Part shown: one piece after another, positions 69 to 57,372 of the stretch
How the letters are laid out: each line of letters begins with the position of its first letter
Numbering within the stretch: the stretch's first letter is position 1
DNA from: Squalus acanthias
Lineage: Eukaryota
Assembly (NCBI GenBank): GCA_030390025.1
Contig: CM059440.1
Span: 52,638,001-52,702,000 of the forward strand
Length of the DNA: 64,000 nt
Direction of reading: 5' to 3'
Position numbers and translations under genes: made by a program
The notes under the pieces: generated by a model
The model's database searches: none
Told to the model about the DNA's origin: nothing
The model's input: only the letters and a program-made list of their open reading frames with translations

Positions 69-1840
69 TCATTTATCTAGGGTTTTCATTCTGTGTCTGT
101 GATAACCCCTGCAACAATCAATCAGAATGTATAATGATAGTAATAATTGAACTACCACTAGCACATGTGACATGATCCTGATCCGTGGATGTACATTCAC
201 ATTTAGTCCCCAGTTCCAGATCTTATTGTACCAAGAAGTTTCTGCTAAGGTTTTACTAATGTCTTTAAATTGTTCCTTTAAGTCTTCTATTCTATGATAA
301 TGTTTTAAAATCTCCTTCGTTTCCTGCTGTAATTTCTTCCAAGCTTTTTCTTCCTCTAACTTAGGAAGTGCCTTGGGCTCTGGTATGACACAAGTTTCAA
401 TCATTCTATTAAGTCCTGTATTATTAAGGGAAAAACTTTTCTCTTGTGGTCTTGGTGGGTGTATATATTGGTGCCCTATCTGCATAGGTATCTCTGGGTA
501 AAAACAAAAGTTTGGCTGGGGAATGGGACAAGTCAGATCTTGATATTCATATTTCTATTCAGCTGTGGTGACACAAAATGTCCCGTTGTTCTCCAGTGCT
601 ACCCTTGTTCGGTGTATCCCCCTTGGGTGTACCTCAAGGGTACAATTGGTGGTTCTCGTAAATCCGCACTTGGCTGTGTCTCCCTCGGTGGGGGGGTGTG
701 TGCATACCCATGTCCTTCCCTTGTGGTGGCCCCCGTCCATCACCACCCCACCTTAAGGTTCTATTCTTCTGGTTATTATCTTCATCCCTTTTCCAAATCG
801 TCTTGGTAGGGACATCATGATATTTAACCCAACTCCCCCTTTGTACCTCTCCTATATTAATCACATCATATAGGGGCTGTCCCTCTTCTGGGAGTTGTGG
901 GATGGCCAGTACAAAGCCAATCACCTTAGTCCATGGGGTCAGACAATTGCCTGCCCTGTGTACTTGTCCCATTTTATGCCCTTTGCATAGGCTTTTATTT
1001 GTGTCAATCCAAGGTTCCAGATCCTCATTAGTAATCCAATCAGGGATCTGTCCATTATTTATTTGCTTCATGTTATGCTGAGCATTCAACAGTAGCCATG
1101 AGCCATACATGGCACATGTCAATTCCTTATGGGTTTGGTGGGATGCATTGCTAATCTGATCAATAATTGTTTTTGCATGGGGGGGCTACTATCTCTTCCA
1201 CCCCCAACAATTGTTTTGCCGTTTGTCCTCCTACCAGTGCCGTTTGTTGGCTATTTTCAGTGGCTTGTTTTATTAACTTCTTTATTTTTGCCTGTAGTTC
1301 TTCTACTCCTTCACTTACTCCTTCTATGTCAAAACTATTAACTGTTGCTAACCTGGCCGCATACCCAGCTCCGGCCATTTCCAATACTCCCCGTTTCTTA
1401 CGTTGCTGTAAGATAGATTTTCCTTGTGGACCCTCTAATTGTTTCATCCACATATTTGGACTATTGTGGAACCCCCTGCGGGATCCTGGTCCATGTATCC
1501 TGTCTATCCCTGACAGTAAAGGCGAATTTCCCTTGTGATTCCTCTGCCAATGGTATGGACCAGAACCCGTTCTGTATCCAAGACTGTAAATATTTTAAAG
1601 TCTGGTTTCAGACCATTAAATATCTTATTCAATGCGGTCTACTCAAATTTACACCAACCAGAATTTCACCGTGCACAATAAAAGTCTGGTTTTTAATAGG
1701 TTAATTAACCTCAATAACTCCAATTCAATCCAGATCAATTTTTTTAAACTAACCAGACCAGTATCACTTGGAAAAGAAAGAAACCATAGCCACATTAACA
1801 AAGAAACAATTACCCATGCCTTGTAAACATTCAGATTCAT
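69..1840 (-). pseudogene. env: Retroviral envelope glycoprotein with class I / paramyxovirus-F-like layout, disrupted by frameshifts and stops
   Basis: Signal peptide MNLNVYKAWVIVSLLMWLWFLSFPSDTG (from 1840); RKKR at 1391-1402; Gly/Ala-rich fusion peptide GVLEMAGAGYAARLA; heptad repeat; Cys-rich middle region (ORFs 634-1122, 555-746); heptad repeat, TM (VLVVVQLLLSLYILI) and short tail in ORF 69-485. Confidence 0.85.
1454..1623 (-). pseudogene. pol: Retroviral reverse transcriptase fragment embedded in env
   Basis: With two frameshifts it reads IFNGLKPDFKIFTVLD..NGFWSIPLAEESQGKFAFTVRDRQDTWTRIPQGFHNSP, matching the retroviral RT stretch LD..N/DxF..IPL...FAFT....WTRLPQGFxNSP. Confidence 0.85.
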
Positions 1841-2379
1841 TTTCTTCCAGGCACATTGGCAACTGTGACTTCAAGGCTGAAGCTTATCTTTTGTAAAACA
1901 ATTAACAAACTTAAAACAACACACGCTTGTTCATCCTGCAAGACAAGTCTTCAAAGGGTTAAACAGCTTTTAGCGCTCTGTACAAAAGAGTGGGTGGAGC
2001 TAAAACAAAAATGACAGACACTTTTTTAAAGACAGACTTTCAGACAAAATAAATACTGTAACTTCTTAAACATTCACAGTCAGGAAAACTTTCACTCTTT
2101 TAATACACACTTTCACCCAAACTGAGATCCCAGCATTCCTTTTAAGATTCCTTTCACTCAACAAATCTTGTGTTTTATTTGTCTCGGCACAGACATTAAT
2201 AACTTCCATGTCGATAAAACTTTAAATTTCTCTTTTTTTTCTTTTTACATAGGCGTCTCAGCAGCTTTTCCTGGCTTTCCAAATCCCTGTTTATTTTTGG
2301 TGAGTTTTCAGATTGGTTAGCCTGCAAATTAGATCTTTTGGCATCGTTTTTATTGTTACGTATATTCTTATACTCTATC

Positions 2380-2873
2380 TTATACTTTATTGTAAGGTGG
2401 TGGGAGATTATTTTCTTCTGGCCAGGGCGGTGGCTCCGGCCAGTTCCCCCCTCTATCGTATCCTGCTGTTTCCTTTTCTGACCCACCCCCATCTATATTA
2501 CCATCTCCTGATAATTTTGGGTATGAGGGCGTACTGCTGGAGCTGGCTGCCGTCACTGGGTATCCCTTCCCTCTTTGTTTGGGAGTTGTTACTTTTTTTT
2601 CTCTTCCCTTTCTTCCTCTTCCTTCTGTTTCAATTCCTTACATTGTTTCTGGTAACAAGCTAGGATCACCATTCCCCCTTTTCCCTCTTTATCTTTGGTT
2701 TGTCCCCTCCACCAAACCCTTTGGCTCTCTGCACTGTCTTCGGGATCCCATCCTTTCTTTTTCATAGTTTCAATGAGTTTCTGATTTTTGTCCGCTAAAT
2801 AGCGGGTGACGGAGTCGGGATCTCCCCAAGGGAATGGTCCCGCCTCCTTTGTGTTCGAGTCTTTCTTTGACAT
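2380..2873 (-). pseudogene. gag: Short Gag-like (matrix / late-domain) ORF, ~164 aa with a -1 shift at an A8 run
   Basis: First ATG-initiated ORF of the track after the PBS (2873-2589); continues in the -1 frame to ...SYPKL...WPEPPPWPEENNLPPPYNKV* (YPKL 2512-2523, PPPY 2392-2403); no capsid or CCHC motifs seen. Confidence 0.6.
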
Positions 2874-3164
2874 TGAGTTACTACCTTCCGTGGGTAGTCT
2901 CCCTTCTGTCCATTCTTTTAAGAATTCTTATTTTACTACGCGCGTTTCTATAGGATTTTGCCGCCTACCCGGCTTGAAGGATTTGCCGCCTCCCCGGCTA
3001 ACCGGACCGCACCACTTCCTCGAGTCTGTCTCTATTTTAGTTCTTTTAATCACAGCCTTACCAGATCTCACAGTACGTTCTGAGCTTTCTAATTTATGGG
3101 TGGTAATTTAAAACGTACTCACCCTCTCTAGCTCAACGTTCCCGTGGGCCGGTAAGGGTCTGCG

Positions 3165-7277: not shown

Positions 7278-7631
7278 CTCAGTTTCAAGTCCACACCCCA
7301 GAAGCACCAGTGACTGCTATCTACGGCCAGTACACGGTGCTGAGTTGCAGCTTTACAGCTCAGGGTAAATCGTCACTGGATCGGCTGTTCATCAGTTGGC
7401 AACGTGTCGAGACAGAGGAAGTTGTTTATAAATATTATTCTGGAAAAGAGCTACTGAGTCGCCAAAGCCCTCGGTATTCGGGAAGGACAAGCTTATTCCC
7501 AGAGGAGTTAAAACAAGGGAACGTTTCAGTGAAGCTGGACAGAGTGAGACCAGAGGATGCTGGACAGTACCTGTGCTTAGTCAGGAATGCAAAAGGAAGT
7601 GGCCAGGGCTTTGTGTCTCTAATATTTGCAG
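7278..7631 (+). CDS. B7-family (CD276-like) gene A, IgV exon
   Basis: ttcacag acceptor, GCAG|gtacat donor, phase 1-1, 354 nt open; VLSCSF, ISWQR, RYSGRTSLF, VRPEDAGQYLC V-set motifs. Confidence 0.9.
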
Positions 7632-8218: not shown

Positions 8219-8503
8219 CATACTACAAGGAACCTGACTTTTTTATTCAGTTAACACCATCCGGGACAGTGTTCAGATTCGAGTCCCAAGGTTACCCTGA
8301 GGCTACTGTTTCCTGGTACAATGAAGAAAATGAGGATATTTCTACACTGTCTGAGACTACGTACCAACAAAGTGGAGATGGTCTATACTCCCTGCAGAGT
8401 ATTCTGCAAATCAGTGACACCAATAGGAGTTCGAACTATACATTCAGATTAAGAAATGATGTTCTACACCAATCAGTTTCTCGAACATTTGGTCTTTCTG
8501 TAG
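8219..8503 (+). CDS. B7-family gene A, IgC exon (no cysteines)
   Basis: ctacag acceptor, GTAG|gtaaat donor, 285 nt; YYKEP, QGYPEATVSW, DGLYSLQSIL, NYTFRLRNDVLHQ resemble the CD276 IgC domain. Confidence 0.88.
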
Positions 8504-10044: not shown

Positions 10045-10202
10045 AAATGAAAACTGATCACCTTTTAACAAGAAATCGCTGGATGCTTGCAGTCACTGTC
10101 CTTGCTATTGAATTTATAATTTTAATTCTAGTCATAGCCGTGTGCAAGAAACGTGTTTCACTGGCAAATGGAGAGAAACAAAATGAACACGGCATTACGT
10201 GA
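10045..10202 (+). CDS. B7-family gene A, TM and cytoplasmic terminal exon
   Basis: ttttttccacag acceptor, phase 1; encodes EMKTDHLLTRNRWMLAVTVLAIEFIILILVIAVCKKRVSLANGEKQNEHGIT*. Confidence 0.85.
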
Positions 10203-31158: not shown

Positions 31159-31213
31159 ATGGTGAGAAGTCTGCTGGCTGTTTTGGTGGCTGTTGAATTC
31201 GGTTTGGCTCAAG
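31159..31213 (+). CDS. B7-family leader (signal peptide) exon of duplicate B
   Basis: MVRSLLAVLVAVEFGLAQ followed by phase-1 donor AAG|gtaagt; GC-rich upstream region with an ETS-like CCGCTTCC (~31057). Confidence 0.7.
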
Positions 31214-37822: not shown

Positions 37823-37824
37823 GA

Positions 37825-37949
37825 TATTCCCAGAGGAGTTAAAACAAGGGAACGTTTCAGTGAAGCTAGACAGAGTGAGACACAGTGCATGTGCCTTGTC
37901 AGTAATGCAAAAGGAAGTGGCCAGGGCATTGTGTCTCTAATATTCGCAG
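37825..37949 (+). pseudogene. 3' half of a B7 IgV exon (duplicate of gene A) with a 13-nt deletion
   Basis: Closely matches 7494-7631 plus the donor and intron start; cagaggatgctgg is deleted; the 5' half is replaced by a CR1 tail; no IgC exon of its own follows. Confidence 0.88.
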
Positions 37950-38804
37950 GTACATGCTTATTTCTGTTTTCATTTTTGTTCCTTTGCTCTTTGTCTGCTA
38001 CAAATAAAAATCATACTCCTTAGATCTCCAGGCTCTGCTGATTTAGTTAATCTCAGCTGGGCTGTACCAGTGGTGTAATCGTTGACCTCTGGGTTAGTTA
38101 GAAAATCGGTCAAGATTCCCTCTCCGGGAACCACCATCAGCAGGATGCAGGTATGTGCATCAGGTGGGTACAGGAACAGACTGAACTGTGATGGTTTTGT
38201 GGTTGAGCAGGCTGTCGAGGTTTACACATGAATAATGGCCACTTGGTCAGGTAGCTGAGGGTGGACCTGTCCTGTGGAACCATACCCTGCAGAGAGTCAA
38301 ACTTCAGGGAAGGAGATTGAGAGGAAAATTGACATGGGGGAGAAGAGTTACTTCCTTTGTTAAAGTACAAAGGATTGCATTTAACAAAATGTTGACTTGG
38401 TAAAGTATCCACAACTCATTCATACCAGCCAATAATCTATTTGCTTCAATTCCTGGCCTATACAGATCTTGCTATTCTCAGCTAGGCTAACAGTAGGGGC
38501 ATTATTATATGGGTTAGGGTTCCCTTCTCCTGACTGCTATCTAGTGATCCGTATGTGGAAAATCATGTGGATGGATGCTGGTTGAGGAGGGGATTGTGCT
38601 TGGCTGTGATGTTTGATCGTCTGCTGATATCGATTGTCGAGGCTCACATATGAATATTGGGGACTCGGGTAAAGTGTCAGGGCAACCACTGCTGGGGGAA
38701 ATGGAGAGTCACCACCTTCAGGAGAGGAAGGGAAAATGCAAATTGTAACAAACTGAATGATAACTTTGAATTCATTACTTTATTCACAGAATCAGATTAA
38801 TAAG

Positions 38805-38871
38805 ATGCTTCAACGTTCTCAGAGTTCTGCTTTTCTGACAATGATGATGATAAAATTAGTGTTGTTTTCTG
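38805..38871 (+). CDS. B7-family gene C, leader exon
   Basis: Acceptor ttcacag at 38789; MLQRSQSSAFLTMMMIKLVLFS followed by phase-1 donor TG|gtaagt. Confidence 0.7.
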
Positions 38872-39961: not shown

Positions 39962-40300
39962 ATCAACAACAAGTAAGTGTTTGGGAAGAAGCCGTACTCG
40001 CCATCCATGGTCAAAATACAGTCCTGCCGTGTCACTTCCTCGTTGATGACTCCTTAGACCAGATCATCATCATCTGGCAACGTGTCGAGACCAAAGAGGT
40101 GATCTTCAGTTCCAACAGCAGCGAAGATCGGCAGAGTCGGCAGTATTCGGGGAGAGCGAGCCTTTTCCCAGAGGAGGTTAAATTGGGAAATGCTTCCCTA
40201 AAATTAGAAGGAGTCAGACCAAAGGATGCTGGGCAGTACAAGTGCTTTATCAGCACTCCAATAGAAATTAGTACAGGAGTCGTGTCTCTAAATTTTGCCG
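39962..40300 (+). CDS. B7-family gene C, IgV exon
   Basis: tatacag acceptor, GCCG|gtatgt donor, 339 nt open; VLPCHF, IIWQR, QYSGRASLF, VRPKDAGQYKC. Confidence 0.9.
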
Positions 40301-41320: not shown

Positions 41321-41605
41321 CGTACTACACAGAACCCAGCCTAATAATCAAACGAACATCAGATGGAACAGCTTTCGCCTTTGAATCCCAAGGTTTCCCC
41401 AAAGCTACTGTTTTCTGGTACAATGAAAAACACCAGGATATTTCTGCCCTGTCTGAGACCTTGTGCCAACTTCATGAAGATGGACTGTATTCACTGCGGA
41501 GTATTCTGCAAACCAATGATACCAGTAGGAGTTCAAACTACAAATTTAGATTAAGGAATGATGTTCTGCAGCAGTCCTTTTCCTGGACATTTAGTCTTCC
41601 TTTGG
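41321..41605 (+). CDS. B7-family gene C, IgC exon (canonical Cys absent; one non-canonical Cys)
   Basis: cctcag acceptor, TTGG|gtaagt donor, 285 nt, colinear with 8219-8503. Confidence 0.88.
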
Positions 41606-42755: not shown

Positions 42756-42904
42756 AAATTCAAACTGATTTTACAAGAAAGCGATGGATGCTGCTTGCTC
42801 CCCTGATAACTGGATTTATAATAATTCTAATTCTAGCATTGGTTTACAAGAAAAATGTCTTGGGCAGAAAGTACGATCCACCAAAACTATACTTCATGAC
42901 CTGA
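42756..42904 (+). CDS. B7-family gene C, TM and cytoplasmic exon (gene C totals ~279 aa)
   Basis: ttttacag acceptor; encodes EIQTDFTRKRWMLLAPLITGFIIILILALVYKKNVLGRKYDPPKLYFMT*. Confidence 0.85.
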
Positions 42905-56800: not shown

Positions 56801-56943
56801 CTATGATGTAAATTGCATTGAAATATATTGTAAGAACTGTTCCTTGTACATTGCTACAGCTAGAATTAACATGATTATAAATTCAGATATCGGAAGAAAA
56901 ATTCTAAGCATCCGTTGGTTTTTTGTAAAGTCAGTTTCAATTC
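56801..56943 (-). CDS. B7-family TM and cytoplasmic exon D (inverted orientation)
   Basis: Intron end (56944-57100) is the reverse complement of gene C 42587-42755; acceptor ttttaacag; encodes (G)IETDFTKNQRMLRIFLPISEFIIMLILAVAMYKEQFLQYISMQFTS*. Confidence 0.8.
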
Positions 56944-57372
56944 CTGTTAAAAAATAATGAAAATGAGTTATGGCAATGCTTTCAGTGCTAGTTTGAGTTT
57001 CTTTGCCAACACATTTTAAATTAACAATTTGACTTTAAAAAAAGTGACCTTGAATAAGCTGGTAATAAATTAGAAGTTAAAGTTGAGGCTGGGAAGGATC
57101 ACATTGTTTCAGTACTGGTTTAATGATTCAGCTCGATATACACACTTGTACCCAGCGCCATCAGTGTCACTTAGAAGAATATTTTTCTTCCCAGAACATT
57201 GGAAAATATCCCGTCCTTTAAAAGGAAACTCATAAATAGAGGCTATCTGATCAAATTAATGTTTACAAAAAGCATTTTTAAAGTTTGAGAATTGCACAAG
57301 CCACACCCTTCTGTAATATTACGAGGCTTCACTATTGGGTGATTTATAGTAACTAAGTTGGAACTGAATTAA

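Follow-up and report, generated by a model that had tools for sequence, protein, structure and literature searches.

The genes described here have their closest relatives, in sequence as well as in structure, among the B7 and butyrophilin proteins. B7-type proteins consist of a leader, an IgV domain, an IgC domain, a transmembrane segment (TM) and a short tail, each domain being encoded by a phase 1 exon of its own. Their IgV domain has a Cys pair, a Trp in the C strand and the motif D-x-G-x-Y-x-C. A passage of PMC6735664, worded for B7x and its kin, counts four conserved ectodomain cysteines, including the pair that connects strands B and F of the IgC domain. CD276 has this layout together with the motifs G-Y-P-x-A-x-V-x-W and R-N-x-V-L, and it keeps both IgC cysteines, as does PD-L1. 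Butyrophilins (BTN2/BTN3) are usually linked to the MHC, with exceptions (PMC12841164). Loss of an Ig disulfide is in itself known: in domains of CD4 and LAG-3 the canonical Cys pair is missing as well, and a passage of PMC10768021 describes these losses as species-specific.

We analysed a window of 64,000 nucleotides from the shark Squalus acanthias (NCBI GenBank assembly GCA_030390025.1, contig CM059440.1, positions 52,638,001 to 52,702,000 of the forward strand; the contig is C16 below). Two genes, A and C, have open frames for type I proteins of 279 aa each, in the order leader-IgV-IgC-TM, with a short tail and three sequons for N-glycosylation, and a broken copy, gene B, sits between them (Table 1). 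Genes A and C have the B7-type layout, including one phase 1 exon per domain, and all the IgV hallmarks given above. The IgV disulfides had been described as retained in the initial annotation, and each IgV exon of the two genes indeed has its two cysteines.

Table 1. Exons and diagnostic codons of genes A, B and C. Positions refer to the window unless a contig is named.
Feature	Position	Strand	Remarks
Gene A leader exon	C16:52636244-52636286		about 1.7 kb before window start; hydrophobic core 4 codons shorter than in the leader at 31159
Gene A IgV exon	7278..7631	+	two Cys kept
Gene A IgC exon	8219..8503	+	AG/GT-bounded, 285 nt, phase 1/1, 94 residues, zero Cys
Phe codon TTC, B-strand Cys position (PD-L1-type spacing), gene A IgC	8278..8280	+	
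C-strand Trp codon TGG, gene A IgC	8314..8316	+	Trp in 81/81 Cys-less clusters among the matches listed
Phe codon TTC, F-strand Cys position, gene A IgC	8443..8445	+	
Gene A stalk, transmembrane and short-tail exon	10045..10202	+	stop; tail without tyrosine; no B30.2
Gene B leader exon (broken clade-A copy)	31159..31213	+	
Gene B remnant: 3' part of a clade-A IgV exon, with frameshift	37824..37951	+	
Gene C leader exon	38805..38871	+	
Gene C IgV exon	39962..40300	+	two Cys kept
Gene C IgC exon	41321..41605	+	TTT (Phe) at 41380 and 41545; one non-canonical Cys
Gene C transmembrane and tail exon	42756..42904	+	stop

A few further features of the locus concern its surroundings rather than the two proteins. 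Gene A and a neighbour on the minus strand are arranged head-to-head with leader exons less than 1 kb apart (L088:7257-8333, just upstream of the window), which suggests a shared bidirectional promoter. The leader of gene A has a 12-nt in-frame deletion. The first intron of gene A holds broken retrovirus-like open reading frames on the minus strand (window 72-2927), env-like by a weak Baculo_F match (E 0.026) and gag-like by eye. An orphan exon resembling the TM and tail exon of gene C is located at 56840-56945 of the window on the minus strand; no adjoining V or C exon was found.

The IgC exons of both paralogues encode Phe at each of the two canonical cysteine positions, as had been proposed for this DNA, and the C-strand Trp, the length of 285 nt, the reading frame and the splice sites are intact in both. 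For the F strand the alignment with CD276 is ungapped (Y-x-F-x-L-R-N versus Y-x-C-x-V-R-N). For the B strand an ungapped alignment to human CD276 places Arg, not Phe, into the Cys column. The Phe at 8278 instead takes the place of the Cys in the PD-L1 spacing C-x-[SA]-x-G-Y-P (7xyq, shark PD-L1), and the multiple alignment agrees with this assignment, which gives a B-C loop with one residue fewer than in CD276. Judged from the encoded residues, a canonical IgC disulfide is impossible under either B-strand alignment. As a control we used 85 IgC matches in the retrieved loci: both cysteines were present in 46/46 non-family matches (two loci counted twice) and neither in 39/39 family matches, and the loss is therefore not a matter of chance. 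The lone unpaired Cys in the IgC domain of gene C is common to the C-type proteins of whale shark and Mustelus and absent from that of the sawshark; it could be a candidate dimer link.

In Pfam both IgC exons matched PF22705 (butyrophilin-like IgC; BTN3A2-like C2-set_3), and the upstream exons matched V-set. A PDB sequence search with the IgV and IgC domains of gene A found no close relative, the best match being CD276. An AlphaFold model of the isolated IgC domain, one of the checks proposed for this locus, predicted a confident C-type Ig fold without a disulfide, namely a seven-strand sandwich with a pLDDT of 88.7, a value to be read with the tendency of AlphaFold toward Ig folds for Ig-like input whatever the real stability. 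The best structural match of the model was a butyrophilin IgC (Z 12.8, rmsd 2.4 over 92 residues), with Z values of 11.6-12.8, i.e. a spread of about 1, for the IgC domains of butyrophilin, PD-L1, ICOSL and B7-H3. A full-length model of an orthologue (pLDDT 91.7) had B7-H3 as its top structural match, and PD-L1, which has the same B-strand spacing before G-Y-P, matched over the ectodomain with a TM-score of 0.86 by target. The two Phe residues, one in strand B and one in strand F, take positions that point inward by strand alternation, and from Ig geometry we infer that they pack on the C-strand Trp.

A different arrangement was seen in one related group of sequences, clade E. The canonical sites of its IgC domain are occupied by Leu/Val, as in L025:4652-4933 (C2339:640 kb), or by Leu/Ala. 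The domain has two further cysteines, at Trp+2 and immediately ahead of the F strand, which are conserved in sharks including Heptranchias, in a ray (Mobula) and in a skate. From the positions of these residues it is possible, and would fit, that a non-canonical disulfide was regained and the aromatic pair thereby freed.

We then placed the family relative to known B7 and butyrophilin genes. In unrooted trees of B7/BTN-type rows, collected with a family-derived profile and calculated without the Cys columns, all 34 Cys-less rows fell on one branch, with support values of 99/97 under an LG+C20 mixture model and 88/95 under LG. Named human VTCN1, HHLA2, CD80/86 and B7-H6 are absent from these trees. 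Left out were 13 rows from the main trees, 7 near-duplicates from an earlier set and P0053, which lacks a clean V-C pair. In the mixture tree CD276 (100/97), PD-L1 (100/99), the butyrophilins and a group containing ICOSL occupied separate branches. From the IgV domain alone a core lineage I of 23 rows was obtained (99/98), which comprises shark clades A, C, D and E, chimaera, batoids, lungfish, reedfish, sturgeon and teleosts. The remaining rows (shark clade F, turtle, coelacanth, lungfish, holosteans) then lay outside lineage I, such that the 34 Cys-less rows amounted to two changes and not to one clade; their union was neither rejected nor shown (AU p 0.405). Read from these trees, the disulfide was lost before cartilaginous and bony fish split, a dating that holds for lineage I at the least; the Cys-less rows as a whole likely have a single origin.

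Three known identities were considered for the family and rejected. Orthology to CD276 fails because the genome has a separate, normal CD276 gene (C19:55.50 Mb) on its own branch, and the database name 'CD276-like' is therefore misleading; CD276, moreover, keeps both IgC cysteines and has the longer B-C loop, while the tail of the family is the shorter one. Orthology to PD-L1 or PD-L2 fails likewise, as a separate PD-L1 gene at C1:113.99 Mb has both cysteines and its own branch. A butyrophilin identity is contradicted by the TM exon, where a stop follows a short tail and no B30.2 is encoded, by the separate branch and by the absence of MHC linkage; for the named homologues no SPRY domain is recorded. 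For VTCN1 and HHLA2 there is one shark candidate each (L072, L073), both on long branches outside the Cys-less branch in trees with no named human or teleost rows of these genes. The VTCN1-like gene (best PDB match 4gos) and a second B7-like gene, which we take to be HHLA2-like, are both located on C5 and keep the IgC Cys pair, in contrast to the family, of which some members bear the name 'VTCN1-like' (zebrafish LOC797620). In the LG trees a VTCN1-like/HHLA2-like/BTN group stood weakly next to the Cys-less family (82/79); in the mixture tree the sister position was unresolved. The ESM Atlas returned generic B7/BTN clusters only. With the IgC pair of the four B7 cysteines absent, we file the family as a B7-like subfamily by descent and not as a classical B7 member. 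Compared with CD4 and LAG-3, where the losses are species-specific, the loss in this family marks a whole branch and comes with a fixed Phe substitute.

How far the family extends was determined by profile searches. An IgC profile run over 1.84 billion representatives gave 303 matches, of which 150 were listed; 24 of these 150 (below 33 bits) were dropped as non-B7 Ig proteins. Among the matches listed, the remaining 126 were B7-type IgC domains with neither Cys in 81, both in 43 and a partial pair in 2. Within the 81 Cys-less clusters among these matches, the Trp was invariant (Table 1), the F-strand residue was Phe in 75, and the B position was occupied by Tyr (28), Phe (22), Leu (17), Val (11), Met (2) or Ala (1). 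Shark clades A, C and D typically have the Phe/Phe pair. Cys-less members were found in sharks, chimaera (Callorhinchus), skates, rays, sturgeons, reedfish, bowfin and gar, and also in tarpon, conger, arapaima, zebrafish, coelacanth, lungfish and softshell turtle (Pelodiscus); a full-length profile search likewise gave Cys-less relatives in a ray, cyprinoids and lungfish. Since the family occurs in both cartilaginous and bony fish, it predates the split between them. A shark-specific origin, first suggested by 12 matches that all came from sharks, was overturned by these searches beyond sharks. Of the lineage-specific, disulfide-free B7 subfamily put forward in the initial annotation, the B7-type architecture and the disulfide loss stand, whereas the restriction to one lineage has to be given up, with members in cartilaginous, ray-finned and lobe-finned fish and a turtle.

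No mammal was present among the named Cys-less clusters (20 clusters from the IgC profile were looked up by name). No such Cys-less B7 gene is known in human or mouse. Together with the PDB search, this suggests that mammals lost the family.

Our preferred reading, which we consider probable, is that genes A and C belong, as intact copies, to an ancient B7-like family, in which a disulfide-free IgC domain with an aromatic core serves as a spacer and the IgV head likely binds a lymphocyte receptor. The disulfide would have been lost once, before sharks and bony fish separated, with Phe in the F strand and Phe, Tyr or Leu in the B strand filling the space beside the Trp. The IgC domain would then hold up the IgV head, whose GFCC' face is the putative receptor-binding surface for a partner cell. 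The partner may be a CD28-family or NK-type receptor that is absent from mammals, with the protein acting as a co-signalling ligand; a short tail would favour signalling through the partner cell rather than through its own. Independent of the receptor, whose role is putative, the Cys-less IgC feature is real and functional, distinct from CD276, and older and wider than first claimed; what surprises is its age, fixation and spread. It adds a branch to the B7 tree that has been hidden by annotation, can be diagnosed simply by an IgC domain without Cys and with an F-strand Phe, and provides a natural C-type Ig domain that has long been kept without a disulfide and is of use for studies of Ig stability. 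The zebrafish member makes a genetic test of function feasible.

The family might already be described under another name, so that our framing alone would be new; we take this seriously as a possibility while doubting it. Candidate earlier names are fish 'B7-H4' and 'B7-H3', reportedly from Hansen et al. 2009, and B7HXen, said to stem from Flajnik et al. 2012. The sequences are public as 'CD276 antigen-like', 'VTCN1-like' and 'butyrophilin-like', a bowfin gene being named 'CD276-like' in part of bioRxiv 2021.06.11.448072, and a passage of PMC13262535 mentions additional B7 paralogues, not further described, for turtles and Cladistia. Against this, no Cys-less IgC B7 group was found in the literature searched, though subscription papers and supplementary files could contain one, and the name 'B7HXen' gave no match; the passages of PMC3172298 that were covered give no account of such a group, and one supplement file of the elephant shark genome paper (PMC3964593) has no B7 terms. 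Likewise, the separate CD276-like and VTCN1-like genes of the Squalus genome, both with their Cys pair, speak against a mere renaming.

According to a passage of PMC11599192, sharks and fish possess CD28-family receptors without human counterparts, for which the family offers candidate ligands; from the shared distribution, a pairing of the two is our guess. A more specific version, which we find rather doubtful, is a gnathostome-wide B7 subfamily, lost in mammals, whose members are ligands of the orphan receptors CD28HL1-3/CD28X, are polymorphic and positively selected in the shark, and in clade E regained a disulfide while the aromatic pair was relaxed.

We next considered the copies in the genome. 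The 3.7-Gb assembly contains 53 IgC matches, of which 49 belong to the family and correspond to at least 45 exons (about 31 A-type, 8 C-type, 4 of clade D and 1 each of clades E and F); some copies on unplaced scaffolds may be haplotigs. The four non-family matches, labelled by PDB likeness and tree position as one CD276, one PD-L1 and two butyrophilin-type exons, all have both cysteines. On C16, 17 family IgC exons lie within 0.6 Mb around the window. Many family copies are broken by stops or frameshifts. The C16 cluster is flanked by a PNRC gene and an archease gene (flanking scan of 76/542 candidate ORFs); the human genes PNRC2 and ZBTB8OS lie at 1p35-36, where no B7 gene is known. A RUNX gene, RUNX3 by exclusion alone, is on the same scaffold as clade E (C2339). 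A second cluster with clade A and C copies, at least 96% alike to those on C16 and C3806, was seen at C4:43.37-43.94 Mb and represents a recent segmental duplication or a misassembly.

Variation among the clade-A copies was higher in IgV than in IgC (pN 0.037 versus 0.015). Next to the C-strand Trp and the F-strand Cys of IgV, 6/6 outward positions varied commonly, against 0/6 inward ones. We take these six outward positions to correspond to the PD-1-binding face of PD-L1; the passages of PMC12151841 that were covered do not give the face residues. For 13 open copies, 19 face codons had 15 non-synonymous changes to 1 synonymous (pN/pS 0.122/0.040), compared with 16.5:16.5 elsewhere (pN/pS 0.019/0.061; Fisher p ~0.004), counts that gene conversion and haplotig duplicates can inflate. 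The 13 copies remained from 16 of 24 that passed a first filter, after removal of L007 and L008 (compensating frameshifts) and L038 (IgV Cys-to-Arg). Six open C16 copies gave 12:1 on the face versus 11.5:12.5 elsewhere (p ~0.013), and for eight shark orthologues the contrast was weaker (variable at 14/19 face versus 50/98 other positions). The face was set by a strand-register rule that was fixed after the variable sites had been seen, so that the excess is a lead; taken as such, it points to an IgV face that may be diversifying among young copies.

Such a pattern would also arise if the proteins faced pathogens, with the IgV face diversifying under binding by microbes or viruses and the copies acting as decoys or escape variants, a type of diversification known from CEACAMs. 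The rapid birth and death of copies, with at least 45 IgC exons of which many are broken, the non-synonymous excess on one IgV face and the short tails are in line with it. We nevertheless regard this explanation as unlikely, since clades D, E and F are ancient groups with few copies that sharks have in common with rays or bony fish, and the overall fold matches B7-H3 and PD-L1; it can, moreover, coexist with co-signalling.

The likeness to butyrophilins allows for another mode of action, in which homo- or heterodimers (e.g. A with C) form through the disulfide-free IgC domain and are sensed by gamma-delta T-cell receptors. The best Pfam family and the top structural matches of the IgC domain are of butyrophilin type, the family has expanded in tandem as the butyrophilins have, A and C copies are interspersed, and strand alternation predicts exposed hydrophobic residues on the outer face of IgC. 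On the other hand, the Z values differ by only about 1 among BTN, PD-L1, ICOSL and B7-H3, a B30.2 domain is absent, butyrophilins form a separate branch, and MHC class I and butyrophilin genes cluster on contigs other than those of the family; altogether we judge this mode of action improbable. On C26, about 45 butyrophilin-type IgC exons lie at 0-7.6 Mb, with both cysteines in every IgC examined, and the same contig carries a cluster of MHC class I-like type at 30-38 Mb.

Expression and selection were examined at the level of the family. The V-C join, across a 587-nt GT..AG intron, was present in contigs of 4/4 runs from two studies and the C-TM join in 2/4; these spliced contigs stem from 4 of 12 listed runs, whose RNA nature is a guess, none being recorded as RNA. 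The depth was at least 64 on the V and C exons versus below 7 within the V-C intron. Compared with the C exon of gene A the contigs had 5, 7, 6 and 6 mismatches, fully accounted for by the listed differences, which spared both Phe codons. Due to these differences the contigs document clade A and not necessarily gene A itself. Clade-A transcripts, with the runs presumed to be RNA, are thus spliced; this evidence applies to clade A and not to gene C.

For the IgC exons of genes A and C we obtained a dN/dS of 0.27 (Nei-Gojobori; dS 0.79; bootstrap 0.14-0.46), in agreement with the purifying selection that had been proposed. The value for A versus D was 0.28, and the other clade pairs gave 0.23-0.36 save D versus E with 0.56; for IgV of A versus C dS was saturated. 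Across nine proteins from eight shark genera the A-type IgC domain was 81-87% identical. The family is thus neither silent, as far as the presumed RNA contigs go, nor evolving neutrally. Decaying pseudogenes, in which the Cys loss is neutral damage, would agree with the many copies that carry stops or frameshifts and with the dN/dS of 0.6-1.7, on few changes, between gene C and its close paralogues, but single dead copies aside we discard this reading for the family as a whole as extremely improbable, given the same loss in about 80 clusters that span more than 400 My of divergence, dN/dS values of 0.23-0.36 for most clade pairs, the open frames of A and C and the spliced contigs.

Several further B7-like sequences of the genome deviate from the usual gene structure. 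L078 (C16:13.30 Mb) is an intronless open frame of 494 codons with a B7-like V-C-C order and all cysteines intact; it groups with two proteins, P0111 and P0124, at 100/100 and may be a retrocopy or represent an intronless lineage of B7 genes. The B7/BTN-like sequences L071 and L074 (C1626) form a mirror image of the family, with an IgV domain that lacks the F-strand Cys (Y-R-L for Y-x-C) and an IgC domain that keeps its pair. Finally, L087 (C3542:200-452 kb) is a tandem array of many similar IgV exons at a spacing of about 2.4 kb, which suggests B7-like genes with multiple V domains.
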